Position numbers and translations under genes: made by a program | Origin: Christensenellaceae bacterium | Lineage (GTDB): Bacteria > Bacillota > Clostridia > Christensenellales > Borkfalkiaceae | DNA length: 64,000 nt | Direction: 5' to 3' | NCBI GenBank assembly: GCA_045542235.1 | Contig: JAZQKQ010000035.1 | Location: 1,669-65,668, forward strand | In this document: positions 29,194-53,290 of the stretch, one piece after another | Position numbering within the stretch: the first letter of the stretch is position 1 | How the letters are laid out: each line of letters begins with the position of its first letter | Notes under the pieces: model-generated | The model's database searches: none | What the model was told of the DNA's origin: nothing | The model's input: only the letters and a program-made list of their open reading frames with translations

Positions 29194-29199
29194 ATTAAA

Positions 29200-29245
29200 A
29201 GCGCACTGCTATTAAAGTTATAACGGCGGTGCGCTAATTTTTTTC
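29200..29245 (+). terminator. rho-independent terminator
   Basis: AGCGCAC..GTGCGCT stem followed by a T7 run. Confidence 0.6.
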
Positions 29246-29322
29246 TTAAAAACTTTGATAAAGTTTTATTTAACCTAAAACGGACTTAATAATATAAAAA
29301 AAATGCTTTTTGTTTTTAAATA

Positions 29323-29351
29323 TTGACATTAAAAAAATTGTGTGATAAAAT
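29323..29351 (+). promoter_or_regulatory. promoter of the acidic-repeat gene
   Basis: TTGACA, 17-nt spacer, TGTGATAAAAT. Confidence 0.65.
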
Positions 29352-29383
29352 TATTTTGTATTGAAAAATATAAAGGGGATATT

Positions 29384-30250
29384 ATGGAAGAAATTAATCA
29401 AAATTTAGAAACCGATGAAACCCTTCAACCCGAAGTCGTTGATGAATCGGTCAATAACGAAAATGAAGAGCCTGCTATGGTTGAAGATAATCAAGAAGAA
29501 AGCAACCAAGCCGAAAGTGAAGAATTAGCTGAAAACGAAAACGAAGAACTTACAATCGTTGAAGATAATCAAGAAGAAAGCGACCAAGCCGAAGGCGAAG
29601 AATTAGCTGAAAGCGAAAGCGAAGAACTTGCAATCGTTGAAGATAATCAAGAAGAAAGCGACCAAGCTGAAAGCGAAGAATTAGAAATTGTTGAAAGTGA
29701 AAATTCTCTCGAACTACCTGAACTTGAAAGTGAAAACGAAAGCGAAGAAATTAAAATTATAGCCGAGGCGGAAGAAAGCTACGTTGCCCCTGAAAAAGCA
29801 GAAGAAATTGTAGCAAAAACCCCCGTATTAGACGATTATCCAGCATCATACAGCAGAATTAAACCAAGTAGATCAATTAAGCCTGACGACGTTGGAGAGC
29901 TTTTTGAAACCGTTGACGACGACGAAGATTCCCTTCCAAAAAGCAAAAAGAAAAAAAGAAAAAAGAAAAAGAAGGCAAAGCCGGTTGATAAAACCGTTTT
30001 ACCTGTAAAAACCTTTAAACTATTAATTTGCGAAATTTTCGTTAGCATTCCAATTATTGGTTTTATTATTGCACTAATTATCAGCCTAAATAAAAAAGCC
30101 AACAAAAACCTTCGTTCATATTCAAAGCTTGCCCTATTTTGGCATATCGTTGGAGTTGGCTTGTTCTTTTTAATTTATATTTACGGCGGTTGGGGCGCAT
30201 TTATTAGCTGGATATTCGACGTTTTTGGCATTGGTGGAGTTTATTGGTAA
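29384..30250 (+). CDS. membrane protein with highly acidic tandem-repeat N-terminal half
   Basis: Start at ATG 29384 follows AAAGGGGA. It has 26-aa E/D/Q-rich repeats, a K-rich patch (KKKKRKKKKKAK), and two C-terminal transmembrane helices. Confidence 0.5.
   Translation: MEEINQNLETDETLQPEVVDESVNNENEEPAMVEDNQEESNQAESEELAENENEELTIVEDNQEESDQAEGEELAESESEELAIVEDNQEESDQAESEELEIVESENSLELPELESENESEEIKIIAEAEESYVAPEKAEEIVAKTPVLDDYPASYSRIKPSRSIKPDDVGELFETVDDDEDSLPKSKKKKRKKKKKAKPVDKTVLPVKTFKLLICEIFVSIPIIGFIIALIISLNKKANKNLRSYSKLALFWHIVGVGLFFLIYIYGGWGAFISWIFDVFGIGGVYW
29480..29690 (+). repeat. in-frame 78-bp tandem repeat, about 2.7 copies
   Basis: gttgaagataatcaagaagaaagc recurs at 29480, 29558 and 29636. 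Confidence 0.85.
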
Positions 30251-30258
30251 AATAACTG

Positions 30259-30287
30259 TTTACAAATTAAAATTTTTGTGATAAAAT
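30259..30287 (+). promoter_or_regulatory. promoter of the small ORF at 30318
   Basis: TTTACA, 17-nt spacer, TGTGATAAAAT. Confidence 0.55.
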
Positions 30288-30317
30288 AAACGTATATATA
30301 AATTAAGGAGTAAGAAA

Positions 30318-30542
30318 ATGAAAATTTATAAAATCGTTCCTTACGCAGGCACCGTTGTTTTAAGAAAAAAAGAATTAGCTCAAGACGCCGTTGTTCGTTA
30401 TTTCGACGTTATCAACCAAGAATGTGTTGACGGTTGGGAATTCGTTAGTATGTGTCCAATCACCGTAACGAGACCGCTTGGTAAACTTCGCATTCGCAAC
30501 GAAACGTATAATGCGTTTATTTTCTCAAAGGAAGAAGAATAA
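30318..30542 (+). CDS. small conserved-looking protein (DUF4177-like?)
   Basis: 74 aa, with AAGGAG 7 nt upstream. It has its own promoter and terminator. The family assignment is a weak recollection. Confidence 0.35.
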   Translation: MKIYKIVPYAGTVVLRKKELAQDAVVRYFDVINQECVDGWEFVSMCPITVTRPLGKLRIRNETYNAFIFSKEEE

Positions 30543-30555
30543 AAAACACTAAAGA

Positions 30556-30590
30556 AAAAAGCTTTTGCCTTTTGCAAAAGCTTTTTGTTT
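30556..30590 (+). terminator. rho-independent terminator
   Basis: AAAAGCTTTTGC/GCAAAAGCTTTT stem followed by T-rich sequence. Confidence 0.75.
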
Positions 30591-30602
30591 TAAAAAAAAT
30601 TT

Positions 30603-30640
30603 AAAAAGGTGGCTTTAACCGTGTTATAGCCACCTTTTTT
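30603..30640 (-). terminator. terminator of the 30642-33521 gene
   Basis: AAAAAGGTGGCT..AGCCACCTTTTTT, which is symmetric with A and T runs. Confidence 0.7.
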
Positions 30641-30641
30641 A

Positions 30642-33521
30642 TTAATCCGTTATAAATTCTATATTATCAATATAGTAGTTAGTGTTGCCGTTTAAAGCGT
30701 AAATTCTAAAATAGTTTACCTTTGATAAATCAATTGCTCCACCCGTTGTTCCTGCCGATGAAATTGGAAGATAAAGTTCGTTCCAACCCGTTTTTACAAC
30801 GTATTGCTCAAAGGACCAATTTAGCTCGTTGCTATCACAAGTGCCGGAAGAAGAAATTTCAATTTGTCCTCCGCCCACGTTGTTTATATCTTCACAATAA
30901 ATATAACAATGCAAATATCCTTTAGAAAACTTTGAAAGGTCTTTGGCGGTAAAAGATCCACTAAGATTAGCGTTCCCACCGCTAACGTTAATTTTCCAAC
31001 TACCAGAGCCTTGTTTTACGAATAATGAATTGGTGTTTAGGCTGGCGTTTAGCCCCTTTGTATCGCAATCGAAAAGAGTTTGTTTAACGGCGTTTGGTCC
31101 AACGTATTCAATTTCATCAACGGTAGAAATTGCGCTGTCAAAAGCCTTTTCCTTGGTCACGCCAAAGCCAATTCTTCCATAAGCTTTCAACCTTCCGCTC
31201 TTATATCCAAGTGAAATTCCGTAAACCCTAAGAGAGCCAACAATAACCATTTCTCCGCCCTCAAGAGTGTAAACGCATTTATCGTTAGGAATATAATCTA
31301 AAGAAGTATTTAAAAGCACTGCGCTACCGCCTACCATTTGACAAAATCCCGCTTCACCGTAACAGAAAGTGTTGAAAATCTTTTGGTTCGTTGGGTTTTT
31401 AAGGGAAATCATTGTGGTGTAAGTTCTTCCAATACCATCACGCAAAATGGCAAAATCTTCGTTAGATTCACCGCTGTTTCTAATTGCTTTCCAGTTATTA
31501 ACGTTGCAGTTTGCCGAATCAAAATAGTCGTAAAGGTTAGAACGAGTCATAAAATTCGGGTTTGATAAACAGCTGGAAATAACGCCGTTTTCGCCACCTA
31601 CTACAATAAAGTTTTTATAGCAAATGCCGTAGTTAGAATTTAAAATATGTCTATTACAACTTGAAAAATCAAAACCAACGTATGCGCCTACAATTTCGTT
31701 GTTTAATGCGTAAACGTCGCAACCCAATCCTTTAACGGCAACGTCGTTTGGGGCTGAACTATTATCAAGGGCGGTTTTTGCATTTTTAAAATCGTTTTTA
31801 GCAAGCCAAATGCGAACGCCCCTTAAACCTGCGCCTTCTTCAAGATTAAAGGTTTCACCGCTTACGTAGCTTACGAACACAACTCCGTTTTTTCCGTTTT
31901 GACTTTGGTTAGTTCTTGAAAAAACTCCCTGTGAAGACCTAAGTTCAACGTTTTTAGGAATGGTCACCTTGCCGTTTAATCTATAAATGCCGTTAGGAAC
32001 AACCACAACGCCACCCGAACTTGACACACCTTTTAAAATTTGGTTAAGCTTTTCAGTGTTGTCAACCATACCACCGCCGGTTAGCCCTTCGGCAATATAT
32101 AGCTTGGTATGCTTTGGATAGCTAAGGTTAAAATTCATATTATATTTTGAAAGGTCAACCGAACCACTTTCAACAACGTTCGTGCCTGAGCCGGAAAATT
32201 CCGCCGTTGAAGAAGCCGTTTTAATTACGCCTACCGGTGAGTTATTAACAACTTTACCAAGGCTGGAATTGGTAAACACAACACCGCTTCTACCATTTAA
32301 ATAATCGGCATATACGCCGGTTTCCGCCTTAATTTGGGCGTTATTTACAAGACCCCAAAAGCCTGCGTCGGCCCTGATACCCGTTGTAAATTTAATTCCA
32401 ATTTTTGCCCTATCAATTTTTACGTTAGCAATCAGTTGATCGTCAAGGTCGCCTAAAACTAACCCTTCAAGGTTGTTTGAAATATATTCGTTAAGTTTTT
32501 GCGAATTTTGACAAGAAAAACCTTTGGTTGCGTTAATCCAATATTTTGGCGAAAGGTTTAAATTATTATAAAAACCAACGTCGGTAGTGGCGTTATGGGT
32601 TAAAGCGTTTTTCAAAAAAGTTCCGTATAAATTTTCAATGTTGCAAAGTTCGTTATAGCTTGTTTTTAACGAAATTCCAATTCCGTAAACGCTGTTTAAA
32701 AAGGTCACGTTTTTAATGGTCGTGGTCACCGGGCTATCGGCATAAATGGTATAGCCATAGTCTATTACGCCGTTAATATTTTGTTCGGTATAATAAAAGG
32801 TTAACCCCTCCACACCGCTGTGTCCACTAAGTTTAAAAAGCGGTTTTTCATAAGGCTTTAAACTTCCAAGTGCCGTTGGTTTTGCAAGGATAATCGTGCC
32901 GTAGGCAGGGTTATCTATTTCAGGGTTTTGCCAATCGCCACGCAAGGTAACGTATTGCGGAAGGGAAATTTCCCCCGTAACAAGGTATTGTCCGGCAGGC
33001 AAAAACACCGTTCCACCACCGTTTTGCGAAACCTGATTAATTGCCGACTGAATGGCGGAAGTGGAATCCTTTACGCCCGTTTTATCGGCGCCGTAATCGG
33101 TGGCAACCGCATCGCAAATAACCGTGTCGGCTGTTTGATAAATGGTTGAAACAATTTTGGTTTTAGCGTTTGAGTTAAGCGGAGAAATATAGCTTTCAAC
33201 TTGATTAATTTGCGGTGTGTTATTTTCCCCGTCACCGCTACTATCTTCTTTTGAAGACGAAGTCAAGCTTTCTAAACTCGAAGAATTTTGACTGTTTTCC
33301 GCCCAATTGCTTTTACTATTTTCTTTACTTTCGCCTACGCTTTTTTCCGTTGATTTATTGGCAGATATAACGCTATTGCTTGGGCTGACAAGCCATTTTG
33401 AGCTTTTGGTTTGTGCTTGGCTACTTTTTTCGCTAACCAGCCCACTGCCGTTTGGCGTTCCCTTTGAACAACCAACGACTAAAAAAATTAGGCATATTAA
33501 AAATACTATTAATTTTTTCAT
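30642..33521 (-). CDS. lipoprotein with two pectate-lyase-superfamily (GH55-like) beta-helix modules and a C-terminal CBM-like domain
   Basis: Lipobox VVGC and a Ser-rich linker. DYGADKTGVKDSTSAIQSAI..GGGTVFLPAGQYLV is the Pectate_lyase_3 N-terminal signature. A second copy reads GGVVVVPNGIYRLNG. Confidence 0.5.
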   Translation of the reverse strand: MKKLIVFLICLIFLVVGCSKGTPNGSGLVSEKSSQAQTKSSKWLVSPSNSVISANKSTEKSVGESKENSKSNWAENSQNSSSLESLTSSSKEDSSGDGENNTPQINQVESYISPLNSNAKTKIVSTIYQTADTVICDAVATDYGADKTGVKDSTSAIQSAINQVSQNGGGTVFLPAGQYLVTGEISLPQYVTLRGDWQNPEIDNPAYGTIILAKPTALGSLKPYEKPLFKLSGHSGVEGLTFYYTEQNINGVIDYGYTIYADSPVTTTIKNVTFLNSVYGIGISLKTSYNELCNIENLYGTFLKNALTHNATTDVGFYNNLNLSPKYWINATKGFSCQNSQKLNEYISNNLEGLVLGDLDDQLIANVKIDRAKIGIKFTTGIRADAGFWGLVNNAQIKAETGVYADYLNGRSGVVFTNSSLGKVVNNSPVGVIKTASSTAEFSGSGTNVVESGSVDLSKYNMNFNLSYPKHTKLYIAEGLTGGGMVDNTEKLNQILKGVSSSGGVVVVPNGIYRLNGKVTIPKNVELRSSQGVFSRTNQSQNGKNGVVFVSYVSGETFNLEEGAGLRGVRIWLAKNDFKNAKTALDNSSAPNDVAVKGLGCDVYALNNEIVGAYVGFDFSSCNRHILNSNYGICYKNFIVVGGENGVISSCLSNPNFMTRSNLYDYFDSANCNVNNWKAIRNSGESNEDFAILRDGIGRTYTTMISLKNPTNQKIFNTFCYGEAGFCQMVGGSAVLLNTSLDYIPNDKCVYTLEGGEMVIVGSLRVYGISLGYKSGRLKAYGRIGFGVTKEKAFDSAISTVDEIEYVGPNAVKQTLFDCDTKGLNASLNTNSLFVKQGSGSWKINVSGGNANLSGSFTAKDLSKFSKGYLHCYIYCEDINNVGGGQIEISSSGTCDSNELNWSFEQYVVKTGWNELYLPISSAGTTGGAIDLSKVNYFRIYALNGNTNYYIDNIEFITD

Positions 33522-33583
33522 AAAAAACCTTTATAATTTTTAGTTTAGCTTAATAAATTAACTAAATATTTTTATTAAAAAGT

Positions 33584-33603
33584 GGTCTATAAGTCGATTA
33601 AAC
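33584..33603 (+). repeat. intergenic motif copy 4 (plus orientation)
   Basis: ggtctATAAGTCGATTAAac. Here the motif sits in the loop of a GTGGT/ACCAC hairpin flanked by A and T runs. Confidence 0.85.
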
Positions 33604-33620
33604 CCATAAACCACCATTTT

Positions 33621-34544
33621 TTATAACCTTGTAGTAGTAATTTTATCGTAAATTTCTTTATATTTATCTTTATAGAATAAATTACTACCAGGCGTGGTAA
33701 CCGAAGCCGTTCCCGCAGCAACGCCACACCTTAACATCTCTTCAATTCCAGCGCCTTTTTCAATGGCAACGGCAACGCCGGCAACCATGCTATCCCCTGC
33801 GCCAACGGTTGAATTAACCGCAACGTTTTCACTCTTTGAATAAAAAGCGTTAGTTCCATCGGTTAAAATTGCTCCGTCCTTTCCAAGGGAAAGTAGCACG
33901 GTTTTTGCGCCACGGTCAATAAGTTTATAGCATCCTTTAACCATATCTTTAAAATTAGTATAGCTTTCCTTATTAACAACTTCAAGCTCGTTAAGGTTTG
34001 GCTTTGCCATAAACACACCTTGGCTAAGAGCGCAAAGCATTTTTTCACTTTCGCAGTCAACTATAACTTTTGAGGTTTTGTTTGAAGCCCCGACCATTTT
34101 ACCATAATAATCGTCGGCAACGCCACTTGGTAAAGAGCCGGAAATTATGGTAATTTGAGCATCTTTACTCATTTCGCCAATAACTCTAATTAGTTCGGCT
34201 TGCTTTTCTTTTGAAACGTTAGCGCCACGATCGTTAATTTCAGTCATCATCGATTTGCTATCAATAATTTTATAATTAATGCGAACGTGCCCTCTCGACC
34301 AAACGAAAGAAGCGGAAACCCCTTCGTTTGCAAGATATTGCATACACCGCCTACCGCCCGTTTCAAACATAAAACCGGTAGTTTTAACTTGGTGGTTAAG
34401 CCTTGCCACACCTACTGCGGCGTTAAGGGCTTTACCTGCCCATCGTTCAATTTTATTTTCAATTCTATTAAGCCTGCCAACGTTAAATTTTTCAAGCTCT
34501 AAAGTGCAATCGATGCACGGATTTGGACATACCGTTAAAATCAT
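33621..34544 (-). CDS. 1-phosphofructokinase-family (PfkB) hexose-phosphate kinase
   Basis: ILTVCPNPCIDCT N-terminus and GAGDSMVAG motif. Start trimmed to ATG 34544. Confidence 0.8.
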   Translation of the reverse strand: MILTVCPNPCIDCTLELEKFNVGRLNRIENKIERWAGKALNAAVGVARLNHQVKTTGFMFETGGRRCMQYLANEGVSASFVWSRGHVRINYKIIDSKSMMTEINDRGANVSKEKQAELIRVIGEMSKDAQITIISGSLPSGVADDYYGKMVGASNKTSKVIVDCESEKMLCALSQGVFMAKPNLNELEVVNKESYTNFKDMVKGCYKLIDRGAKTVLLSLGKDGAILTDGTNAFYSKSENVAVNSTVGAGDSMVAGVAVAIEKGAGIEEMLRCGVAAGTASVTTPGSNLFYKDKYKEIYDKITTTRL

Positions 34545-34585
34545 TTTAATTCTCCGTCGACAAAGCAATGATAATTAAACTTGGG

Positions 34586-36897: not shown

Positions 36898-36932
36898 AAG
36901 GCCGTGACTAACTAGCCACGCCCTTTTTTTAG
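36898..36932 (-). terminator. probable terminator after the Sel1 gene
   Basis: On the minus strand: GGGCGTG..CACGGCC hairpin (one mismatch) followed by TTTTT. Confidence 0.5.
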
Positions 36933-36939
36933 CTTAATT

Positions 36940-37782
36940 TTAAGGTTTTTTCATTGCAGCAACCCTTGACATTGCTAAAATATTACCCTTTTCCGCCGAC
37001 TTTTTATAAAGCTGATAAGCCTTGTCCATATCCACCTGCTTGCCTTTGCCGAAGAAATAGCAATTGCCCAAGTTATATAAGGCTTTATCATCACCCTGTT
37101 CAGCCGCCTTTTCTAGCCAAGAAATGGCTAACTTATAATTTTGGTGTTTTGGTTCTAAATAATAAGCGCCCATAACCCCCTGACTTTGAGCGTTTCCGTT
37201 ATGAGCGGAAATATCAAACCACTCGTAGGCCTTTGACGGATTTTTACTAACGTAAATTCCCTTTAAGTAAAAGGTTGCCAAATTATATTGAGCTTTATCG
37301 CATCCTAAAAAAGCGGCCCGCTCGTAATATTCAAAAGCTTGCCTTAATTTTGGCGGTATGGTTTTAGTGTAAGCGTAGGCAATTGAGCACATAGAATTGG
37401 TGTCGCCCATGTCCGCAGCTTTTTGAAAATATTCCATTGCCTTTGCCATGCTTGCTTCAACGCCGTAACCCTTTTTATGGCAAACCCCCAACAATCTATA
37501 AACGTTAACGTCTTTAAGCTCGGTTAATGAATTTAACCAAAAAAACGCCCTTTCATAGTCCTGAGTAGTCCCTAAACCGTAATAGCAACACATTGCCAAA
37601 TTATATCGAGCATCGCTATCGCCACCGTAAGTCGCCTTGGAAAAAAGTTCAAAAGCCCGCTCAAAGTTTTGTTCAACGCCCTTACCTAAAAAATACATTT
37701 TACCAAGCAAACATTGAGCACGAGCATTGTCGGTTTCAGCCAAAATATTTAATTGATCAACGTAGTTAACAATTCTTTCCAT
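36940..37782 (-). CDS. Sel1-like repeat (SLR/TPR) protein
   Basis: About seven repeats of A..W/Y..KAA..G...A...LG..Y..G.GV.. Confidence 0.85.
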   Translation of the reverse strand: MERIVNYVDQLNILAETDNARAQCLLGKMYFLGKGVEQNFERAFELFSKATYGGDSDARYNLAMCCYYGLGTTQDYERAFFWLNSLTELKDVNVYRLLGVCHKKGYGVEASMAKAMEYFQKAADMGDTNSMCSIAYAYTKTIPPKLRQAFEYYERAAFLGCDKAQYNLATFYLKGIYVSKNPSKAYEWFDISAHNGNAQSQGVMGAYYLEPKHQNYKLAISWLEKAAEQGDDKALYNLGNCYFFGKGKQVDMDKAYQLYKKSAEKGNILAMSRVAAMKKP

Positions 37783-37826
37783 AATTTCACCAAATGCTTA
37801 ATTTTTTTATTAAAACTTTAAAAACT

Positions 37827-37845
37827 CGCCTATAAGTCGATTAAT
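37827..37845 (+). repeat. intergenic motif copy 5 (plus orientation)
   Basis: cgcctATAAGTCGATTAAt. It overlaps the stop codon of the VWA gene (37841-37843). Confidence 0.85.
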
Positions 37846-39196
37846 TGGCATTTTTATCAACCATTCGAGCAACCACGCCGTATGGCGGATCGATTTCAAG
37901 GTTATTTATTACCCACAAAACGGGTATGTCGATAATTTTATTTTTATCGGGGAAAGGAGCATAGCCATCGGTTAAAATTACAACCGATTTAGGCAAATTA
38001 TCCGCCATTTCCTTTTCAATATATTTAAATATAACCCCAAAGTCAGTTCCCCCACCGCCGTAGGCGTTAATTCGCTTAAACTCCTCTTCATCCATAAAAG
38101 GAACGGGCTTTACGACTTCGGCATCGAAAAAACCTAAATAGCCTTTAAGCTTTCCGTTAAATTGGTCGATTGCCCCCTTAATTTCACTATAACACCTTGC
38201 AACGTCGTCGTCACTCATTGAACCGGAAGTATCAATCATAAATAAAATATTTTCAACGCTTTCATCCTTTTCGTTGAAATCGGGCAGGTAAAACCCGTTA
38301 TCAAACCGCCTATCCGGTGGCGAAAAAGAATAATCCATAACTTCTTCTTGAACGAAATTTTGCAAAATCGTTCGCCAATCGATAATTGGATTTTTTAATT
38401 GATCTAAAACTCTCTTAGCGCAAAGTGGCACCAACCCACGGCTGGTTGACGATTCTCTAACGGAAATAGACTCAACCGCTTGGCGCAAACGCATTTCCCA
38501 AAAACGTTCAAGTTCATCGTTATCGGGGGTTTTTCCCCATTGGCTATGGCTGTCTATTCTCGCACCACTAACACCGCAATCAGGATAGCCGTAACCATTG
38601 GATTTCATTCCGCCGTTTCCGCCGTTTGAATTTTTACCTTGTCCGTTTCGTCCATTATTATTTTGACCGTTTTTACCTGATGAGCCATTAGACGAAGAAG
38701 AATTTTTACTGCTAACCCCTTTTTTGGCGTTTTTTTCAAACTCCTTCTTTATTAGCTCGTAAACTTCTTCGGCGGTGTATAAATAGCCTTCGCTTCCGTC
38801 GGGAACGGTGTGCATTGCCTCGCCGTAGTTAGTTAAAGTAATTTTTCGTTTATCCATATTTTGCGAACGCAAAATGTTTGAATTCACAACAACGTCGCAA
38901 GCAACGTTAAACAAAAACTCATCACGCCCATTCGTTCTAAAACAATGCTTTAACGCAATGTGCAAAACTTCGTGCATAAGCACAAAGTCAAGCTCGGAGT
39001 CGGTTAATTCCCCTAAAAACCTTGTTCCAAAAACAATTTTCTCCCCGTCGGTATAAGCCGTTTCGGCGTTAGAGTCAATGGCAAACTTTGCGTGCATTAA
39101 TAAAATTCCGTAAAAGCCGTTTTCCGTTAAAAGCCTAAGCCGAGAAAGAAGCAAACGTTTAGAATATTCTTTCATTAAATCATTAGACAATTCCAT
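37841..39196 (-). CDS. zincin metallopeptidase-like N-domain + low-complexity linker + VWA domain (DUF2201-type architecture)
   Basis: HExxH as LMHEVLHIALKH. A G/N/S-rich linker. MIDAS motif as MIDTSGSMS, and VILTDG. Confidence 0.8.
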   Translation of the reverse strand: MELSNDLMKEYSKRLLLSRLRLLTENGFYGILLMHAKFAIDSNAETAYTDGEKIVFGTRFLGELTDSELDFVLMHEVLHIALKHCFRTNGRDEFLFNVACDVVVNSNILRSQNMDKRKITLTNYGEAMHTVPDGSEGYLYTAEEVYELIKKEFEKNAKKGVSSKNSSSSNGSSGKNGQNNNGRNGQGKNSNGGNGGMKSNGYGYPDCGVSGARIDSHSQWGKTPDNDELERFWEMRLRQAVESISVRESSTSRGLVPLCAKRVLDQLKNPIIDWRTILQNFVQEEVMDYSFSPPDRRFDNGFYLPDFNEKDESVENILFMIDTSGSMSDDDVARCYSEIKGAIDQFNGKLKGYLGFFDAEVVKPVPFMDEEEFKRINAYGGGGTDFGVIFKYIEKEMADNLPKSVVILTDGYAPFPDKNKIIDIPVLWVINNLEIDPPYGVVARMVDKNAN

Positions 39197-40298
39197 TTAA
39201 AAGCCTTCCTTTATCCCTTAACCATTTTGCAAATTCAGGAATGTTCATAAGCTTTAATTTTGCGTTTTCTTCAATATATAAATAGTCCTTTAAAATTAGC
39301 ACCGAAAAATCGGGTGGAAGCATTGAGGCATAGCGAATTGAATTGGCAATTTTATCCAATTTGTCCATATTCTTTTTTGCGTGAGCAACAATTGACGAAC
39401 AGAGAGCGTAAAGGGTGTCAACCCCCTTTGGAACTTTATATTCCGTGCCGTTAAAAATGCCGTCGATACTCGGTAAATCTAAAAAGACTTTACACCAAGT
39501 TTTAAACTCTATTGCAACGCCAACGCCCAAACAACCTTGAATTATAGGATAAGCCTTTTCAATATCGTCGCCACAGGCAAACAACACGTTTGAAACCATT
39601 TCCCAACTTCTTGGGGTTGCAAAAGCTAAATCGTCGCTGGAAGCGTCGAACATATTTAAATAGTCCCTTTTAAAAGCTAAAAAGCCAATAACCTTAGGGT
39701 TAATTCCCTTTTTAACCGCCCAAGCTCGCCAACCTTCAAAATTTTCTTTAACGGCAAAATGGCAAAGTCTGTTTGCCAATGCTTTTGGCATTTTATAGGC
39801 AACGGACTTATCGGTCACCCTATTCCCCGCCGCAATAACGATGCAGTTATCAGGCAAGCGGTGTTCACCAATAACCCTATCGAGAGTTATTTGGTAAGCC
39901 GCCGCCTGCACCGATTGAGGAGCAGCTGAAATTTCATCAAGAAACAAAATATTAACCACGCTAGGCGACGGATCCATATTAAATATTTGTGGTTTAAGCC
40001 AAACCGCCAAAGTTTTATCGGCGTTAGCCGTTGGAATACCCCTAAGGTCAATTGGGTTAAAAAGCAACAAGCGCACGTCGGTTACGGCAACCTTTTTGCC
40101 TGTTTTTTTGCTAATTTTTTCACCGAGCTGTCTAACCGCTTGGCTTTTACCAACGCCGGGAGCACCCCAAAGCATAACGGAAGGAATCGTTTTTAGGTCG
40201 ATTTTAAAATTTATTGCGTTAGAATATAAAACGGAAAGATTTTCCACAATTTTGCCAATTTCTAACGCCACAACGTTATCTGATTTAATCGCAGTCAT
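39183..40298 (-). CDS. MoxR-class AAA+ ATPase (AAA_5)
   Basis: Walker A GAPGVGKS, Walker B ILFLDEIS, sensor AAGN. It overlaps both neighbouring genes by 14 nt. Confidence 0.85.
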   Translation of the reverse strand: MTAIKSDNVVALEIGKIVENLSVLYSNAINFKIDLKTIPSVMLWGAPGVGKSQAVRQLGEKISKKTGKKVAVTDVRLLLFNPIDLRGIPTANADKTLAVWLKPQIFNMDPSPSVVNILFLDEISAAPQSVQAAAYQITLDRVIGEHRLPDNCIVIAAGNRVTDKSVAYKMPKALANRLCHFAVKENFEGWRAWAVKKGINPKVIGFLAFKRDYLNMFDASSDDLAFATPRSWEMVSNVLFACGDDIEKAYPIIQGCLGVGVAIEFKTWCKVFLDLPSIDGIFNGTEYKVPKGVDTLYALCSSIVAHAKKNMDKLDKIANSIRYASMLPPDFSVLILKDYLYIEENAKLKLMNIPEFAKWLRDKGRLLNGIV

Positions 40299-43200
40299 TG
40301 TCTACCCCCAATTTTTTATCAATTCTTTTTAATTTTCTTTTTAGTTTTTCAATATCGTCGCCATAGAATTTAAGTTTTGGAATTTCCTTTTCCAAATTAG
40401 CCTTTTCGTTTTCTAAAGCAACTAAATATTGATTAATTTTTTCATAATGCTCTTGAAGATTAGCAATATAATTATCAATTCTTATGAGGTGCCCTTTTTC
40501 AGCGTTTGAAAGTTCAACGTTATATCTACCTTCCCTTTGCAAAACCAAGTAAGGGTGGTTAATATCCATATTAGAAGGCATAATAAGGGAAAAACCTTGA
40601 TAAGAAGCGATGGTTTTTTCTTCAGTTTGCAAGTGGTTTGCCATAAGTTCGTTTTGAATTAATCCGGCAAAATCTCTCCGCCATTCCTTATCGGTAATAG
40701 GCTCGAAAGAAGCAATCTCTTGAACGTCGCTTAAACATTTTAAGCAAACTTCACGCTGTTTTTCGATAAGAGCAGGCAGTGCGTTAAGCCTTTCTTCCAT
40801 CGTCTGCTTTAAAATAACCTGTCTTGCTTGAAGGGAAACGCATTTTGAAAGCTGATTGCTAACTTCTACCCTTTCTTTAATGAGCGGATTACCAATTGCC
40901 AACGCCTTAATTTCAGCATAGTCTAGCACGATATCGTCAACGTTAGAAGCTTCTCTTTGAGAAACCGTTCCGCTTAATAAATCGCAAATAAACCGCTGTT
41001 TCGTTTCTAAAAGTTGCCACGAATAGGCATCGAAACTACCTTTGGTTATATACCTGTAAATAAACACCTGACTGTTTTGGTTGCCCTGTCTTATAATTCT
41101 ACCGTTTCGCTGAACCATATCGGCAGGTTTCCAAGGCACGTCGATGTGGTGAACCGCAACAAGCTTATCTTGAACGTTAACGCCTAAACCAAGCTTAAAA
41201 GTCGAGCCGATTAACACTCTAATTTCACCACGGCGCATTTTATTGAACAAATCGGTTCGCTGTCTTTCGGTGTGAGCGTTGTGAATATAGGCAACGTGCT
41301 CTCTTAAAACGCCCTTCAAAAGCAATAATCTGGTAAGTTCGTCGTAAATATTAAACCCAGCTTTCGGCGTTGAACTATCGCAAAAAACAATTTGCGTTAA
41401 ATTTTTAGCCGAAGTTTGCTGATAGATATTAAACACGTTTTCAGCGCAATCACGAACCTTTGAAAGATGGTCTTCACGGGCGTTTTCATCAACCAATCTA
41501 ATGTCTAACGCCGCCTTTCTACCATCGGTGGTAATTTTAAGCATATTATCTTCATTTCTACCAACCTTGCGATTTCTAACCTTGTCGGCACGAGTGGAAA
41601 TTTCCTTTAAATAGCTATCAAGTTGCAAAGATTTTTCAATAAGTTGGTCGTTATAGCCTTTAAAAATTGGCAAACCAACCGCCTTTGCTTGGTCGTGGAA
41701 ATCGGCAAAACCGGCAAGCATATTCGTTAGTTCTGGAATATTATGGAATTTTGAAAATCTCGTTGCCAAACGGTAGCTTGAAGTGTCAACGTCAATTTCA
41801 AACACCGTTTGCTTTTCGGCAAACATTCCAATCCAAGCGTCGAAACTCGATAAATCTAAAAGGCTAAGTTCACCGCTTTGAAGGTAGGTTTGCAAGGTGA
41901 AAACGTCGGTAATAGAGTTGGAAATTGGCGTGCCGGTTGCAAAGCAAATGCCACCGCCACCGTTGGTTTTTTGCACGAATCTAACCTTTTCAAGCATATC
42001 CTTACACTTGATTGAGCCTTGGGAATTAATGCCCAAAACGTGCCCGATTTTAGTGTCAAGCGGTAGGTTTTTAAAGTTGTGAGCTTCATCAACGAAAAGC
42101 CTAGTAATACCCAATTCGTTAAAATAAACGTTAACTTCTTTATCGTCAACCTTCTTTTTTCTTAAAAGCTCTTCTTCTTCAATTTCCACCCTTTTCTTTT
42201 CAAGGCGCTTTAACCTTGTTTTTAAAGAATCTTTTGCTCGCTTTGGATTTTTTAACGCAATTAAAATGGAATCGATTTCTTCAATAATTTGGTTTTTATA
42301 GTAATTTAAACCAAACTGAATTGATGAAAAACAGCTATAACAAATTACGATTGCATCGTAGTTGCCGTCACGCATTTTAATAAGAGTTTCCTTTTTCTTT
42401 GCAGGAGTGAAAACCTTTGGCTCAACGTAGAGAACGTTTGAGTTTGGATACATATCGGCGTAAATTTCCTTCCATTGTCCAATAATGTTGTTTGGAACTA
42501 CGAACATATTCTTTTTGGAAGCGCCAATTCGCTTTAATTCTTCACCTGCGGCAATCATAACGTAGGTTTTACCCGAACCAACGTCGTGAGCGAGCAAGGT
42601 GTTTGGAGTGAAAAGTATTCTGGCAATGGCATTTTTTTGGTAATCGTAAAGCTTTACCAACTTATTCATAGTTGGCAAGGTTAAAAAACCACCGTTAAAC
42701 CGACGAGTTCTTAAACTACCAAACTTGTTTGTAAAAATGGTTCTAAGCTCTTCCGCACGGGCTTTATCACGCCAAACCCACTTTTGGAAATCACGCAAAA
42801 TTAATGCTTGCTTTTCAACGCAAAGCATTGTTTCTTCCTTGTTTAAAACGGAAACCTTTTTATCCTTTTTATAGTCCATAACCTGGTCGTATATGGTTAA
42901 AGGTCGTTGGTTTAAAGTTCTCTCGATAATTTCAAGAGCGTTGAGCCTTGAAGTGCCGAAAGTGGAAGTAGACTTAACGTCGCCCACGCCCATATAACGG
43001 CGCTTAAAAGGGATTTCCCAAGTGCCGGTTATTTCATCAAACAAGGTTGCATAGTCAGGGTGATTAAAATATTTTGCACCCCCTAAAAGGTGGATTATAA
43101 ACTTGTCCACCACGTGAGAAGGAAGCCAAGGCGAGCCTAAGGTTACGTAAATATCCTTTTGATTAACTTCTTCCGGCATAACCTTATTAATCGCTTCAAT

Positions 43201-43740
43201 ATTTTCCTTAAAATAACCCCTATATTGAATGTTTGCGGTAATTGCAATTTCCCGCTTGCGCAAAAGGTTGCCCGAAAGATATTCATCGGCAGTTTCCCAA
43301 CCCTTATAAAACACACCGCCCCAGCTTTCAGGGTTTTGAAAAATTGCACCCTTTAAGCCGAAAATTACGTCCTTTAAACTTAGTGCGGTAATTTGAGAAA
43401 TATATTCAATATCCACCCTACCCAACTGGTTTAAGCTCATAATAAGCCCGTCGGCAAGGTTTTCGCAATAAACCCCTTTTACCTGTTCGCTGTTTTTAAA
43501 GGCGTTTTCCCAATCGAGTGAAACTTCCATGGTGGTAGATTTTTCCACTTCTTCATCGGTAGGCATAACGATTTGAGGCTTTGTAAAAATAGCTTCCTTT
43601 TCCACCTTTTTTACAATTTTTGCCTCAGGCTTTTTACCGGATTTTTGAGCGTTATACTCCTTTTCAAACTGCTCAAAGTCAATTTTTCCGTTAACGGACT
43701 CTAACAAATTATTAAGTTGTTCAAAATCAATTTTTAACAT
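40285..43740 (-). CDS. SNF2-family DEAH helicase, 1151 aa, with uncharacterised N- and C-terminal extensions
   Basis: Motif I AHDVGSGKT, motif II DEAHNFKN, motif III ATGTPISNS, motif VI QRNGRIIRQGN, and a coiled-coil C-terminus. Confidence 0.85.
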   Translation of the reverse strand: MLKIDFEQLNNLLESVNGKIDFEQFEKEYNAQKSGKKPEAKIVKKVEKEAIFTKPQIVMPTDEEVEKSTTMEVSLDWENAFKNSEQVKGVYCENLADGLIMSLNQLGRVDIEYISQITALSLKDVIFGLKGAIFQNPESWGGVFYKGWETADEYLSGNLLRKREIAITANIQYRGYFKENIEAINKVMPEEVNQKDIYVTLGSPWLPSHVVDKFIIHLLGGAKYFNHPDYATLFDEITGTWEIPFKRRYMGVGDVKSTSTFGTSRLNALEIIERTLNQRPLTIYDQVMDYKKDKKVSVLNKEETMLCVEKQALILRDFQKWVWRDKARAEELRTIFTNKFGSLRTRRFNGGFLTLPTMNKLVKLYDYQKNAIARILFTPNTLLAHDVGSGKTYVMIAAGEELKRIGASKKNMFVVPNNIIGQWKEIYADMYPNSNVLYVEPKVFTPAKKKETLIKMRDGNYDAIVICYSCFSSIQFGLNYYKNQIIEEIDSILIALKNPKRAKDSLKTRLKRLEKKRVEIEEEELLRKKKVDDKEVNVYFNELGITRLFVDEAHNFKNLPLDTKIGHVLGINSQGSIKCKDMLEKVRFVQKTNGGGGICFATGTPISNSITDVFTLQTYLQSGELSLLDLSSFDAWIGMFAEKQTVFEIDVDTSSYRLATRFSKFHNIPELTNMLAGFADFHDQAKAVGLPIFKGYNDQLIEKSLQLDSYLKEISTRADKVRNRKVGRNEDNMLKITTDGRKAALDIRLVDENAREDHLSKVRDCAENVFNIYQQTSAKNLTQIVFCDSSTPKAGFNIYDELTRLLLLKGVLREHVAYIHNAHTERQRTDLFNKMRRGEIRVLIGSTFKLGLGVNVQDKLVAVHHIDVPWKPADMVQRNGRIIRQGNQNSQVFIYRYITKGSFDAYSWQLLETKQRFICDLLSGTVSQREASNVDDIVLDYAEIKALAIGNPLIKERVEVSNQLSKCVSLQARQVILKQTMEERLNALPALIEKQREVCLKCLSDVQEIASFEPITDKEWRRDFAGLIQNELMANHLQTEEKTIASYQGFSLIMPSNMDINHPYLVLQREGRYNVELSNAEKGHLIRIDNYIANLQEHYEKINQYLVALENEKANLEKEIPKLKFYGDDIEKLKRKLKRIDKKLGVDNDCD

Positions 43741-43820
43741 TTGTAAGCTCCTTTAATTTTCCTTTGCAATACAATTATAGCCCTAAAACCAGACGAAATA
43801 AAGATATTTTTAATCTATAA

Positions 43821-43870
43821 TTTACGCATTTTACCTAACCGCTAACGGATTTTACGCAAATTTTACGCAA
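43821..43870 (+). repeat. three direct TTTACGCA repeats in the divergent control region
   Basis: TTTACGCA at 43821, 43851 and 43862, with a partial TTTACG at 43921. Confidence 0.6.
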
Positions 43871-44027
43871 TTTTTTGTTATTTTAAAAATTTTTTTCCTA
43901 ACGCTTTTTTTCGACAAACTTTTACGTTTTTTTCTATGTATATTATTGTTAAAAATGAAAGGGGTGTTTTCCTTTTTTTTACAAAAATTTTTTAAAAAAT
44001 TTTTTTATTATATTTTTTAGCCCTTTA

Positions 44028-44062: not shown

Positions 44063-45259
44063 ATGAGTTACATAGAGTTAGATAAAAATATTGAAAACTT
44101 AATAAAAACCGAAAGGAAAAACGGAACTTACAAAAGGGTTGAATGTTGCGATAACAGCGCTATTCGCAGGTTTTCTAACCCACACGACCAACCTTCGATA
44201 ATTAGAAGCAACTTTATTAAAGACGTTGACAAAATTTTAAACCTGCCCTTTTACAATCGCTACGGCGATAAAACCCAAGTTTTTTCCTTTTATAGAAACG
44301 ACGATATTTCCAGGCGGTTTAGCCACGTTCAATTGGTTTCAAGAATTGCCCGAACAATCGGCAAAGCTTTAAACCTTAACCTTGAACTTATTGAAGCCAT
44401 TTCTTTAGGTCACGACCTTGGCCACCCACCCTTTGGACACAGTGGAGAAGTTATTTTAGATAAACTTTTTTATTCTCAAACCAAACGGCATTTTTCCCAC
44501 GCAATTCAATCGGTGCGAATTTTAACCGATATATTCCCACAAAATTTAACTCTACAAACCCTTTCGGGAATAGCTTCACACAACGGAGAAATAGAACAAA
44601 AAAATTACCAACCTAAACCCCTTGAAAGCTTTGACCAATTTGACAAGCTCATTGAAGAATGTTACGTAAACGACCAAACGGCTAAAAAGTTGGTGCCATC
44701 GACTTTGGAAGGTTGTCTTGTGAAAATTTGCGACATAATTGCCTATATCGGCAAGGACCGGCAGGATGCTCAAAAAATTAACCTTGTCGCCCAGGAAAAC
44801 TTTACCGACCAAATAATCGGGCTTTTCAACGCCGAAATTATTAACAATTTAATGGTCAACCTAATTGAAAATAGCTACGGCAAGCCTTACGTTTGTTTAA
44901 GCGATGAATTTTTCACGGCTCTTAAAAGCGCAAAGGAACAAAATTATAAATTAATTTACGCCCACCCGCAAAACGTTGAAATTTTTAATAGCGTTGTTAA
45001 TCCAATGTTTGAAATGGTTTATTTCAAGCTTTTAAGTCACCTTAAAAATAAAAATCAATCATCGCCAATTTTCACCCACCACGTTAATCTTATTAACAAC
45101 AGTTTTTACTCTCGAAGTCAGCCTTACGGCGAAGGCGAGCCTAACCAAATCGTAGTTGATTTTATTGCTTCTATGACCGACGATTACTTTTTAGACATTT
45201 TTCATCACCTTTTCCCTGACAGCAATTTAAAGGTTGAATTTAAGGGTTATTTTGATTAA
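44063..45259 (+). CDS. dGTP triphosphohydrolase-like HD-domain protein
   Basis: LGHDLGHPPFGHSGE and the HD signature. Length is 398 aa. Confidence 0.8.
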   Translation: MSYIELDKNIENLIKTERKNGTYKRVECCDNSAIRRFSNPHDQPSIIRSNFIKDVDKILNLPFYNRYGDKTQVFSFYRNDDISRRFSHVQLVSRIARTIGKALNLNLELIEAISLGHDLGHPPFGHSGEVILDKLFYSQTKRHFSHAIQSVRILTDIFPQNLTLQTLSGIASHNGEIEQKNYQPKPLESFDQFDKLIEECYVNDQTAKKLVPSTLEGCLVKICDIIAYIGKDRQDAQKINLVAQENFTDQIIGLFNAEIINNLMVNLIENSYGKPYVCLSDEFFTALKSAKEQNYKLIYAHPQNVEIFNSVVNPMFEMVYFKLLSHLKNKNQSSPIFTHHVNLINNSFYSRSQPYGEGEPNQIVVDFIASMTDDYFLDIFHHLFPDSNLKVEFKGYFD

Positions 45260-49689: not shown

Positions 49690-49764
49690 TGGGGTGTCGC
49701 CAAGCGGTAAGGCAACGGACTCTGACTCCGTCACCCGTAGGTTCGAATCCTACCACCCCAGCCA
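49690..49764 (+). tRNA. tRNA-Gln (anticodon CTG)
   Basis: The cloverleaf folds by hand. Acceptor is TGGGGTG/CACCCCA with the U1-A72 pair typical of bacterial tRNA-Gln. Anticodon stem is ACGGA/TCCGT with loop CTCTGAC and CTG at 49722-49724. T arm is GTAGG-TTCGAAT-CCTAC. Discriminator is G, and the CCA end is encoded. Confidence 0.9.
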
Positions 49765-49952: not shown

Positions 49953-51107
49953 TTACTCGTCATCAAGATTTCCTAATATTGCTGAATATTCACGCTCCTT
50001 TTGTTCGGGAGTCTTGTATTGAATCTTGGCGTAAGGGTGGCGTGTGTTGTAAAATTCCATATAATCATAAATCGATTGGAGCAGTTCTCCCTCTGTGCGA
50101 TATTTCTTTCTATACAATTCCTCTCTCTTTAAAGAAGCGAAGAAAGACTCAACAACGAAATTATCATAAGGAACATAAGGGCGTGAAAAAGAACGAGTGA
50201 TACCTAATGCTTTTATGTAATCATTTAGCGTTTTAGAACAGTAGTTAGCCCCTCGGTCGGTATGGAAAATTAAAGAGGATAGCGGCTGCCGATTTTCATA
50301 AGTTTTTTTGAAGGTCGTTTTAATGAGCTGCGTGCTTGTTTTTCTTGCCTACTTTATGAGCAATGACTTTTCGTGCATACAAGTCGATGATAACACAAAT
50401 ATAATACGATTTTCCGTTGCATTTAAAATAGTGACATCACTTACCCATACTTGATTGGGAGCATCAGGATCAAATTCTTGATTCAAATAATTTTTGTGTC
50501 TTTGAATTTCATCAGCATAAAGCTTTTTTGCTTCCTGCCGAATGCTTACAAGTCCAATATCGTTCATTAATTCTCGCACCATTGCCTCGTTTACCTTAAC
50601 ACCTTTGTTTCACAAAACGGCAGTTATTTTTCTGGCACCGAAAATTTGACTGCTTTCATCGAAAACCTCTTGTATTTGCATACGTAAAGCTTCGCGCCGT
50701 TTGGCATACCAAGTATTATCTCTTTTGATACGAAGAATGTGGCTGTAATAAGTTCCTCGAGCAATATCTAATGCATCGCAGATCATATGAATGCTATATT
50801 CACTCGACAACTTTTCGGCTACATAAAGCTTTTGCTGTAAAGGGGAGTTAGGCAAAACGTTCGCCTTTTTGATAATTTCAATAATACCTTCCAACCGTTT
50901 GACTTTGGCTTCAAGCAAGTTGAAGTTTCGCAAAGTTAAGCCTTTTCGTGTTGCTTCCGCTTGCTCTGTTCGATAATCAGATAGCCACTTGTAAAAGGTA
51001 CTTTTTGAAATTCCTATAGATTTGATGATACTTGTAGGCGACTCGGATTTAGATAAATAACGATCCAAAATCGCTTGCTTTTCCTCATTTGTGAATTTTG
51101 ATTTCAT
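49953..51107 (-). mobile_element. IS3-family transposase, pseudogenised
   Basis: OrfA HTH and leucine zipper at 51107-50610. HTH_21 and rve start (PNQVWVSDVT) at 50582-50349. My own translation of 50345-49953 gives HTDRGANY..RPYVPYDNFVVESFFASLKREE..FYNTRHPY, the DDE core. All three fragments share one frame, which is interrupted by an in-frame TGA (50610-50612) and TAG (50349-50351). Element ends were not resolved. Confidence 0.8.
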
Positions 51108-51228: not shown

Positions 51229-51319
51229 GATAGTGAGAAAAAATCTCACAAACATGAATAATTAACCGAAGTTTGAGGTATAATAACATAAAACAATCAT
51301 TAAATTGGAGGTAATTGCA

Positions 51320-52537: not shown

Positions 52538-53223
52538 TGGCAAGTTCAAAGGATCGAAAAAAGAAAAGACAAATTGACTATTTGAATCCGCTAGAAAGAA
52601 TATATGTGTTTTGTGAAGGAGAGCAAACAGAACCACTGTATTTTAAAGGATTTGAAAAAGCCATAAAAAACAATCCCATATACAAAAATCTTGTTCATAT
52701 ACACATTGAAGGCGTCGGAGCTGAAACCTTGCGTGTTATTTATTATGCAGAAGAGTATGTGAAACAAAATAATATAAAGGGTGCACAAATTTGGTGTGTA
52801 TATGATAAAGATAGTTTTCCCACACAAGACTTTAATGCTGTATCACAAAGAGCCGAAATATTAAACGGACAACAAAACAAAGTTACTTATCATTGCGCAT
52901 GGTCTAATCAGTGTATTGAATATTGGTTTATCTTAAATTTTGCGAATTATACATCAGACAATGATAGGAAAGACTATAGAAAATTCTTACATAAAAAATT
53001 TAAAGAACTGGGATGGACTAGATACGAAAAAAACAATGAAGAATTGTTTGAAATTATGACAGAAAAAGGAGACCCTAAGAAAGCAATTGTGTATGCGCAA
53101 AGGCAGTTAGATGCTTTCAGGGGGAAAACCGATACTCAATCTGTTCCTGCCACCAAGGTTCATTTGTTGGTTCAAGAACTTGCGAAATATCTCCCTGATG
53201 ATATTAAAAGCAAATATATTTAA
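52537..53223 (+). CDS. RloB-like (TOPRIM-like) protein
   Basis: IYVFCEGEQTEPLYF, WCVYDKDSF and AWSNQCIEYWFILNF match the RloB pattern. The start overlaps the ATPase stop as TAATG. Confidence 0.8.
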   Translation: MASSKDRKKKRQIDYLNPLERIYVFCEGEQTEPLYFKGFEKAIKNNPIYKNLVHIHIEGVGAETLRVIYYAEEYVKQNNIKGAQIWCVYDKDSFPTQDFNAVSQRAEILNGQQNKVTYHCAWSNQCIEYWFILNFANYTSDNDRKDYRKFLHKKFKELGWTRYEKNNEELFEIMTEKGDPKKAIVYAQRQLDAFRGKTDTQSVPATKVHLLVQELAKYLPDDIKSKYI

Positions 53224-53290
53224 GGGTATTCGTTAAGTTCAAATCCCATAAGTACTTGCTCAAAAATATCTTTTTCGTAGCCTTTGCACA

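Follow-up and report, generated by a model that had tools for sequence, protein, structure and literature searches.

What brings an SNF2-type DNA motor into one operon with a MoxR ATPase and a putative protease carrying a von Willebrand factor A (VWA) domain, and whom would such a combination serve? The question is raised by four minus-strand genes in a 64,000-nucleotide (nt) stretch of a Christensenellaceae genome (contig JAZQKQ010000035.1, positions 1,669 to 65,668), which we call the window: open reading frame (ORF) 1 for an SNF2-type helicase (40285-43740, 1151 amino acids (aa)), ORF 2 for a MoxR protein (39183-40298, 371 aa), ORF 3 for a zincin-VWA protein (37841-39196, 451 aa) and ORF 4 for a Sel1-repeat protein (36940-37782, 280 aa). 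A preliminary description of this DNA had proposed an uncharacterised conflict system here. What stands of this proposal is an unnamed and conserved unit of the first three genes, hereafter the trio; the Sel1 protein and a divergent HD-domain neighbour fall away as parts, and the unit may serve either host defence or a mobile element. We read the trio as a self-contained, horizontally mobile conflict module that gut Firmicutes carry in genomic islands, most likely as a defence against invading phages or plasmids, a reading to which we assign a probability of about 0.45.

ORFs 1 to 3 are chained by stop/start overlaps, for which base-by-base reading gives ATGACTGCGATTAA at the helicase/MoxR junction and ATGGAATTGTCTAA at the MoxR/VWA junction, 14 nt each, and a purine-rich ribosome-binding site lies 5' of both. 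The Sel1 gene follows the VWA gene after a gap of 58 nt, and the only convincing terminator hairpin of the four-gene unit, an intrinsic terminator-like hairpin with a T run on the minus strand (36903-36920), is located past it. Because the junctions are coupled, the gap measures 58 nt and a terminator is found solely past Sel1, the four genes read as one operon, presumably transcribed as a unit. All ORF positions, the minus strand, the two 14-nt overlaps and the 58-nt gap had been given exactly in the preliminary description. An A+T-rich intergenic region of 322 nt separates the helicase gene from the divergent HD-domain gene and contains a putative promoter and leader of the operon (43741-43900, minus strand), in which TATAAT occupies 43779-43774, a weak sigma-70-like match spans 43887-43860 and the ribosome-binding site AAAGGAG covers 43754-43748. 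On the minus strand of this promoter region a TGCGTAAAAT-like motif occurs in three direct copies (43821-43885), which could be an operator. Unlike in other species, where WYL genes are found, no regulator gene adjoins the repeats in the window, and a search of the 322-nt region for a small ORF or regulator returned just ORFs of 21 and 24 aa with no evident meaning.

The trio is widespread. Scanning 185,579 species genomes, one genome per species, for helicase-related sequences yielded relatives in at least 577 species-level genomes, and locus counts out of 80 refer to the best 80 of these, whose hosts are all Clostridia or related Firmicutes of gut and rumen. The same-strand order helicase, MoxR, zincin-VWA is kept in every one of the 80 loci uncut by a contig end, one copy being degraded, and MoxR-VWA adjacency in 73 of 75. 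In 75 independent loci with measured overlap lengths the MoxR and VWA genes share 14 nt in 46 cases and 17 nt in 15, and the helicase and MoxR genes share 4 nt in 49, 8 nt in 12 and 14 nt in 4. Translational coupling of the trio is conserved, and the equal length of the two junctions in the window is incidental, since the helicase/MoxR overlap is mostly 4 nt elsewhere. The same arrangement emerged from metagenomes when more distant stand-alone helicases were used as seeds: all 12 stand-alone helicases of about 1100-1300 aa with a trio-level profile score have a MoxR gene downstream, plus a VWA gene unless the locus is cut, two deep-branching loci among them carrying the trio without overlaps. 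The co-occurrence of the three coupled genes outside this genome, which the preliminary description had named as a point to check, thus holds for the 80 species-level loci uncut by a contig end as well as for metagenome loci.

Where the helicase is part of a larger protein, its neighbourhood differs. Approximately 65 metagenome loci with the helicase inside a fused ORF of 1700-3000 aa have neither MoxR nor VWA, and one metagenome locus (L213) with a short, C-terminally truncated helicase ORF has no MoxR/VWA genes. At 59 of 62 loci in IMG/VR the helicase is embedded in an ORF of about 1,300-5,700 aa (for the majority 3,500-5,000 aa), none of the 59 with MoxR/VWA; the trio occurs there on two short contigs only. 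The trio type, defined by roughly 50% identity or more, was not found in the sequenced phages and plasmids of INPHARED and PLSDB, where all helicase matches are below 40% identity. This split across loci implies that the helicase has two alternative partners, a methylase in the same polypeptide or MoxR and zincin-VWA in the same operon.

By Pfam, ORF 1 contains SNF2-rel_dom (37.4 bits, cut-off 24.9), ResIII and Helicase_C (43.1 bits, cut-off 23.5) and has no methylase or nuclease domain. The motifs AHDVGSGKT, DEAHNFKN and QRNGRIIRQGN are present, motifs I, II and VI being at least 95% conserved in 84 sequences, and the two RecA-like lobes, these three motifs and a profile score above threshold place the protein in the SNF2 superfamily. 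Residues 1 to about 90 are variable and not conserved among orthologues; after them come a region with a winged helix and DUF8437 (about aa 94-360), an SNF2 motor of two lobes (about aa 360-930) and, at the C-terminus, a coiled coil with a small beta-rich domain. Homologues carry PF28553 (WH_1), PF28554 (DUF8437) and PF28555 (Helicase_dom), and the DUF-type Pfam names for the extra domains of the helicase are recent additions. An AlphaFold2 model of moderate quality (predicted local distance difference test score (pLDDT) of 65.9; low confidence for aa 1-160) has SNF2 remodellers as all 50 of its 50 top Foldseek matches in the PDB, with E values of 1e-11 to 1e-14, among them SMARCAD1, Mot1, ALC1, Chd1, ISWI, INO80 and CSB. 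Its closest structures are SNF2 remodellers and not other superfamily 2 (SF2) helicases, as for an SNF2-type fold, and its structural neighbours include motors that strip proteins off DNA, e.g. Mot1 (TBP).

The origin of this helicase is indicated by its match to phrog_10089, 'DarB-like antirestriction', which extends over aa 94-1120 with an E value of 4e-233 (PHROGs), and by hundreds of proteins from phages and plasmids, with annotations as DNA methylase or DarB-like, to which it is 31-38% identical. The homologous stretch begins at about aa 91, with only some 90 unconserved residues before it. Of the N-terminus of about 370 aa that had been described as unassigned, the first 90 or so residues stay so, and aa 94-370 belong to the DarB-like helicase module. 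An exhaustive profile-free search retrieved 6,964 cluster representatives related to the helicase at an E value of 1e-30 or better; above about 40% identity these are mostly stand-alone proteins of 1,050-1,250 aa, and below it mostly proteins of 2,000-3,400 aa with the helicase module in the C-terminal half. Judged by homology, ORF 1 is the helicase half of the DarB-type methylase-helicase polyvalent proteins, without the methylase. Its SWI2/SNF2 clade is that of the methylase-helicase dyad of polyvalent proteins, with DarB of phage P1 as archetype (Iyer et al. 2017, PMC5512222). Homology to the DarB-type proteins covers the whole of aa ~94-1120, comprising the winged-helix/DUF8437 region, the SNF2 motor and the C-terminal coiled-coil domain, but the trio helicase has neither the fused N6-adenine methylase nor LPD36, is 1151 aa long as compared to 2000-5000 aa, lies outside phages and plasmids (the window locus is without phage or transfer genes, whereas DarB proteins are encoded by phages or conjugative elements and enter together with their DNA) and always has MoxR and zincin-VWA genes behind it, an arrangement never seen with the fused forms. 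As the methylase is absent and the protein is not phage-borne, ORF 1 itself is not of the DarB type.

Of the two partners, ORF 2 matches AAA_3 (35.2 bits, cut-off 27), AAA and AAA_5 in Pfam and, over its full length, phrog_1297 (E 1.4e-91, PHROGs), and combines the AAA+ core with its Walker A and B motifs, the family profile and the adjacent VWA partner gene that characterize MoxR proteins. Conservation in 70-84 orthologues is at least 95% for its Walker A motif GxPGxGKSQ, Walker B motif ILFLDE and sensor AAGN; the best PDB matches of the orthologue profile are midasin AAA domains, and a homologue on the Synechocystis plasmid pSYSA is annotated as MoxR family ATPase. ORF 3 matches DUF2201_N (106.3 bits, cut-off 23.2; E 2.7e-30), DUF2201/VWA (57.7 bits, cut-off 26.4; E 1.7e-15) and, again over its full length, phrog_1314 (E 3.3e-80, PHROGs). 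It consists of a zincin metallopeptidase domain (aa 1-160) with HExxH at H75/E76/H79, a disordered, non-conserved G/N/S-rich linker (aa 162-212) and a helical region followed by a VWA domain with an intact metal ion-dependent adhesion site (MIDAS; DTSGS at 322-326, GGGGT and TDG). H75, E76, H79, DxSxS, GGGGT and TDG are invariant or nearly so (at least 95%) in the same 70-84 orthologues, and all enzymes of the trio look active from these motifs.

The AlphaFold2 model of ORF 3 has a pLDDT of 71.7, with confident zincin and VWA domains and a disordered linker. Its PDB matches in Foldseek are VWA/MIDAS domains, among them the MIDAS domain of MDN1/Rea1 and NorQD, and it matches proteins of N4-like, jumbo and PBS1 phages over the full length. 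A sequence search of solved structures returned nothing close, the matches being the C-lobe of SsoRad54 for the helicase, a weak one to minigluzincin MJ1213 for the zincin domain and midasin for the MoxR profile. These results agree with the preliminary description, which had called ORF 1 an SNF2/DEAH helicase with the quoted motifs and without methylase or nuclease, ORF 2 a MoxR/AAA_5 ATPase and ORF 3 an HExxH zincin joined by a G/N/S-rich linker to a VWA domain with MIDAS: Pfam and a motif check confirmed all three, including the DUF2201_N and VWA-like domains that had been expected.

With both DUF2201 domains and an intact HExxH and MIDAS, ORF 3 resembles gp25 of phage N4, and in terms of domain architecture MoxR and zincin-VWA are a pair of the gp24/gp25 type of N4-like and jumbo phages. 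In N4-like phages gp24 and gp25 are core genes of unknown function (PMC4193335), and the MoxR and metallopeptidase-vWA pair of jumbo phages has been proposed to be an assembly chaperone (PMC7824862). The trio pair shares with the gp24/gp25 and group 2.2 jumbo-phage pairs the two-gene unit and the domain architecture (PMC4193335, PMC7824862), but identity is 23-37%, and the phage pairs, which are core phage genes with a function either unknown or related to assembly, are without an adjacent SNF2 helicase, whereas the trio pair is chromosomal and helicase-coupled. Jumbo-phage contigs carry the MoxR/VWA pair without the helicase, and so does pSYSA. On two conjugative plasmids a VWA-like gene is found with no helicase and with a gene for an ATP-binding protein, a candidate counterpart of ORF 2, 1-4 kb upstream; on one of them the VWA-like gene adjoins genes of a type IV secretion system (T4SS). 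Since the helicase is DarB-like and the pair is of the N4 type, both halves of the trio come from mobile-element lineages. On pSYSA (19361-34554, L159) the MoxR and VWA-like pair lies amid toxin-antitoxin genes and a DUF262 (GmrSD_N-type) gene, a setting in which the pair alone may be a conflict module.

No named system corresponds to the trio, in accordance with the preliminary description: PADLOC 2023 and NCBIfam 2026 gave partial matches to the helicase C-lobe and nothing for MoxR/VWA. An operon of SNF2, MoxR and DUF2201 genes was likewise not found in the searched literature, from which subscription journals were outside the scope, so that this absence is no proof. Among the closest relatives in logic are the predicted MoxR-vWA ternary conflict systems of the VMAP, iSTAND, FtsH and beta-propeller types (Kaur, Burroughs et al. 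2020, PMC7159879), in which peptidases are fused to vWA and a third component is the presumed sensor (PMC7159879, PMC12839542). The trio has the MoxR and vWA couple, a peptidase fused to vWA as effector and a third conserved component, but this component is an active SNF2 translocase and not VMAP, iSTAND, FtsH or a beta-propeller, Pfam finds no adaptor domain of the effector-associated or death-like kind, and the hosts are unicellular gut Clostridia, whereas those of the ternary systems are multicellular bacteria. An SNF2 translocase as third component of the MoxR-vWA logic is new.

SNF2-family motors also occur in the anti-invader operons of DISARM (DrmD), Zorya (ZorD), BREX type 3 (BrxHII), Dpd (DpdE) and Hma (HmaA). 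However, the trio helicase matches these proteins over about 70-200 residues with 13-55 bits as compared to NCBIfam cut-offs of 500-1500, for example 43 bits for DrmD (cut-off 610), 31 for DpdE (500) and 17 for ZorD (1500), and the window contains no DrmABC, ZorABC, PglX/PglZ, Dpd or methylase partner genes. With C-lobe-only matches and the partner genes absent, we rejected membership in DISARM, Zorya, BREX-3, Dpd and Hma. Midasin (Rea1/MDN1) and NorQ/NorD (PMC9976466, PMC13036017) share with the trio, by prediction, an AAA+ ring of the MoxR/midasin clade with a MIDAS VWA domain that grips the substrate and passes on force. Their tasks, however, are the remodelling of ribosome precursors and the insertion of a metal into nitric oxide reductase, and a fused protease and a DNA motor, both present in the trio, are absent from them.

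The trio also moves. Its flanks vary from species to species, and one helicase sequence (P0041) is listed in 177 assembly index blocks from gut samples. A block of 11,955 bp around P0041 is 99.97% identical in two genomic settings (L001 5705-17659, L004 5705-17659) and contains a tyrosine integrase, an HTH_17 excisionase (Xis), a PemK-like toxin, a sigma-70 region-4 protein, a 58-aa ORF, the trio and an rve-type insertion sequence (IS), that is, a Tn916-like recombination and regulation module without transfer genes. The occurrence of a near-identical block in two settings identifies the trio as cargo of a mobile island. Around the copy in the window no integrase, phage structural or conjugation gene is adjacent, as had been described, and this holds to about 10 kb among the annotated ORFs. 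An empty site was sought in the same species via dGTPase-bearing contigs and none was seen, since on all of them the place of the helicase is taken by a truncated ORF where the contig stops. A module regularly embedded in prophages or integrative and conjugative elements (ICEs) was rejected, in line with the preliminary description, as what IMG/VR, INPHARED and PLSDB contain is the DarB type in fused form and the MoxR-VWA pair without a helicase, and not the trio.

What makes us favor a role in defence is the setting in islands, the presence of WYL regulators and the fact that sequenced phages and plasmids are without the trio type. Within 10 kb of the trio, regulators with WYL and WCX domains (BrxR/CapW-type) are found in 30 of 80 loci, a 672-aa AAA and AAA_lid_6 ATPase with IetA-like PADLOC matches in 12, DUF2779/Cas4-like proteins and a metallophosphatase in 7 each, and GmrSD and a 5'-nucleotidase corresponding to the PADLOC candidate PDC-S08 in 5 each; in 40 of the 80 loci one or more of WYL, IetA-like AAA, GmrSD, PDC-S08 and DUF2779 are present. 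Among 265 neighbours at positions ±1 to ±3 there are single cases of Csm6, retron and DRT reverse transcriptases, GajB, PDC-S26, S27 and S02, besides PDC-S23, PcfJ, resolvases, PD-(D/E)xK nucleases and ordinary metabolic genes. An enrichment of defence genes around the trio is thus plausible, and the neighbourhoods are variable and rich in defence and mobile genes, which fits the defence-island setting that the preliminary description had named as a point to check. Several points weigh against this reading. The neighbour counts are raw numbers, and about half of the loci are without any recurrent defence family. WYL genes are sometimes located downstream of the trio and may then regulate the next system instead, and the window neighbours of the operon are ordinary (EF-G-like, PfkB kinases, HIT, oxidoreductase, exonuclease). 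The functional support for defence is guilt by association, and the closest outside relatives of both halves are on the invader side, namely DarB-like anti-restriction proteins and the pairs of N4-like phages, jumbo phages and conjugative plasmids. Finally, the physical link between the helicase and MoxR-VWA is one that we infer, as are the complex as such, the order of events, the substrate and the side that benefits.

A further unit recurs downstream of the trio: the 672-aa IetA-like ATPase is followed in 10 of 80 loci by a 281-aa protein without family (L005 15889-23516; also L015, L028, L030, L044, L065 and L081), and some loci add a 473-aa unknown, an LRR_5 protein and an FtsH-like AAA-M41 protein. 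The FtsH-like AAA-M41 gene is near the trio, although not adjacent, in 7 of 80 loci. The ATPase and the 281-aa protein may be a separate, likewise unnamed system.

If the trio acts in defence, its SNF2 protein would be a double-stranded DNA translocase derived from a DarB-type entry helicase. It would locate or follow foreign DNA, or protein complexes bound there, and either recruit the MoxR hexamer or license it. The partner with the VWA domain would grip a target protein via its MIDAS metal site, as do the midasin MIDAS domain and NorD, and ATP-driven remodelling by MoxR would pull the target or release the fused enzyme from inhibition. The zincin domain could then cleave a DNA-bound invader protein or, with an abortive outcome, a host protein. 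A Sel1 protein in this lineage, or a leucine-rich repeat (LRR) protein in others, would be added as fourth subunit, probably as a target-binding adaptor. As the helicase pairs with either a methylase or MoxR-VWA, it appears to deliver an effector to DNA; the DarB-type partner would modify this DNA, and the trio partner would act on protein instead. In its most novel form, which we offer as a speculation with rather long odds, the trio would be a protein-targeting, DNA-guided immune system in which a translocase captured from DarB-type entry proteins patrols incoming DNA and hands bound invader proteins to a midasin-like MoxR/MIDAS puller for destruction by the fused zincin. The gp24/gp25 pair of N4-like phages would in that case be an invader-side counterpart using the same logic.

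The same parts could work for the other side. As a counter-defence or establishment module the trio would serve its carrier element, the translocase moving on the element's own DNA and the zincin-VWA protein stripping off and cleaving bound host defence proteins. We consider this a serious rival, if somewhat less probable than defence; that the trio is a proteolytic replacement for the DarB-type methylase, as such a role would have it, is a similarly tentative proposition. The invader descent of both halves and the carriage on an integrative element keep this role alive: aa 94-1120 of the helicase show homology to anti-restriction proteins of the DarB kind, MoxR-VWA takes the place of the methylase as helicase partner, the MoxR/zincin-VWA pair is core in N4-like phages, occurs in jumbo phages and adjoins T4SS genes on conjugative plasmids, the trio is found on a Tn916-like integrative block, and PcfJ, resolvase and CHAP genes lie near it in some loci. 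Moreover, in the polyvalent early-phase proteins that phages and conjugative elements encode, no partners are commoner than zincin peptidases and this clade of SNF2 proteins (PMC5512222). Yet the trio type is essentially absent from INPHARED, IMG/VR and PLSDB, where the fused DarB type is abundant, most loci are without transfer or virion genes within 10 kb, the copy in the window has no mobile-element hallmark nearby, and the frequent WYL regulators and the restriction and Abi-type neighbours fit the host or island side better.

Two further explanations would take the trio out of conflict altogether. A DNA motor, a remodelling ATPase and a protease are a set that suits cellular DNA maintenance, i.e. 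the clearance of DNA-protein crosslinks or stalled roadblocks by the logic of SprT/Spartan-type proteases, and one homologue of ORF 3 (P0188) carries a precomputed SprT-like Pfam match (PF10263), whereas Pfam gives no SprT match for ORF 3 of the window. PafBC-type WYL regulators, which control DNA-damage regulons, could be counted in the same direction. A housekeeping task is, however, difficult to reconcile with the patchy distribution (hundreds of 185,579 species genomes), the location on a mobile block, the hypervariable flanks and relatives that are overwhelmingly phage- or plasmid-borne, and we regard it as improbable. We give even less credit to a prophage remnant in which MoxR and zincin-VWA are a virion-assembly chaperone and protease and the helicase is an unrelated neighbour. 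The MoxR/VWA pair of Acidianus two-tailed virus reportedly has such a role in virion assembly, ORF 3 has full-length structural matches to phage proteins, and assembly is also the function proposed for the jumbo-phage pair (PMC7824862). But structural, terminase and lysis genes are absent beside the trio, both among the annotated window ORFs and among the recurrent families around the 80 loci, the helicase is co-inherited and translationally coupled with the pair, and all motifs are conserved, which is not expected of a decaying remnant.

The trio is abundant, with at least 577 species-level genomes and thousands of metagenomic proteins, yet unnamed, and it joins two puzzling modules of mobile elements, the DarB helicase, with its obscure task next to a methylase, and the MoxR/zincin-VWA pair, which is core to all N4-like phages. 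The alternation of methylase and MoxR-VWA provides a direct handle on the role of the helicase. A function in defence would add a protease-based, DNA-motor-guided mechanism to bacterial immunity, and one in counter-defence would be a proteolytic alternative to protective methylation.

Both genes that flank the trio in the window had been drawn into the conflict system, and neither is retained as a part, each being found in 1 of 80 other loci. The Sel1 protein, taken for a member of the cassette, contains six Pfam Sel1 repeats (E 5e-55) and no evident signal peptide; its gene shares contigs with the trio in near-identical assemblies, but a Sel1-like gene follows the trio in just one of the 80 other species (L056), so that it is a lineage-specific add-on. 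LRR genes of the LRR_5/BspA type are present in 13 of 80 loci, often directly after the trio and in several cases only 4 nt downstream. By analogy with these BspA-type LRR proteins of other lineages the Sel1 protein is probably an optional adaptor, and the presence of either an LRR or a Sel1 gene after the trio makes an optional solenoid-repeat fourth subunit a recurring theme. The divergent neighbour (44063-45259) is dGTPase-like, as had been described, and lies across the divergent promoter; its proposed linkage to the trio and to the anti-phage class did not hold, with a dGTPase-like gene adjoining the trio in 1 of 80 other loci and a score of 91.6 bits against the NCBIfam anti-phage dGTPase NF041026 (cut-off 400). 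Its best match is the generic dGTPase PRK01286.1-2 (192 bits, cut-off 393), and the E value against the PADLOC dGTPase model is 1e-43.

Known defence systems are encoded elsewhere in the window, 7.6-17.8 kb from the trio operon, and count towards its defence-island context. An AbiLi/AbiLii-type pair of an AAA_21 ATPase and RloB (51305-53223) was recognized by PADLOC with E values of 1.2e-83 and 6.2e-25. The type II-A CRISPR-Cas locus on the minus strand (53871-61512) comprises Cas9 (57397-61512), Cas1 (56516-57397) and Csn2 (55511-56209), with space for cas2 between Csn2 and Cas1 (56209-56516), and an array of about 22 units of the 36-nt repeat GTTTTAATTACTTATAGAATAACAAGACTCTCAAAC at approximately 53871-55425. 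A tRNA-Gln (CTG) gene (49690-49764) and an N-terminal fragment of an IS-type transposase (50610-51107) may lie at the border of an inserted segment comprising AbiL and CRISPR-Cas. On the other side of the operon, neither Pfam nor PADLOC matches two ORFs of 1313 aa (25252-29193) and 302 aa (29342-30250). A 172-nt tandem duplication (53289-53634) separates the CRISPR array from the AbiL genes, whose neighbour it is on that side; the two copies of the duplication are 96% identical, and it contains a hairpin-plus-T-run motif.

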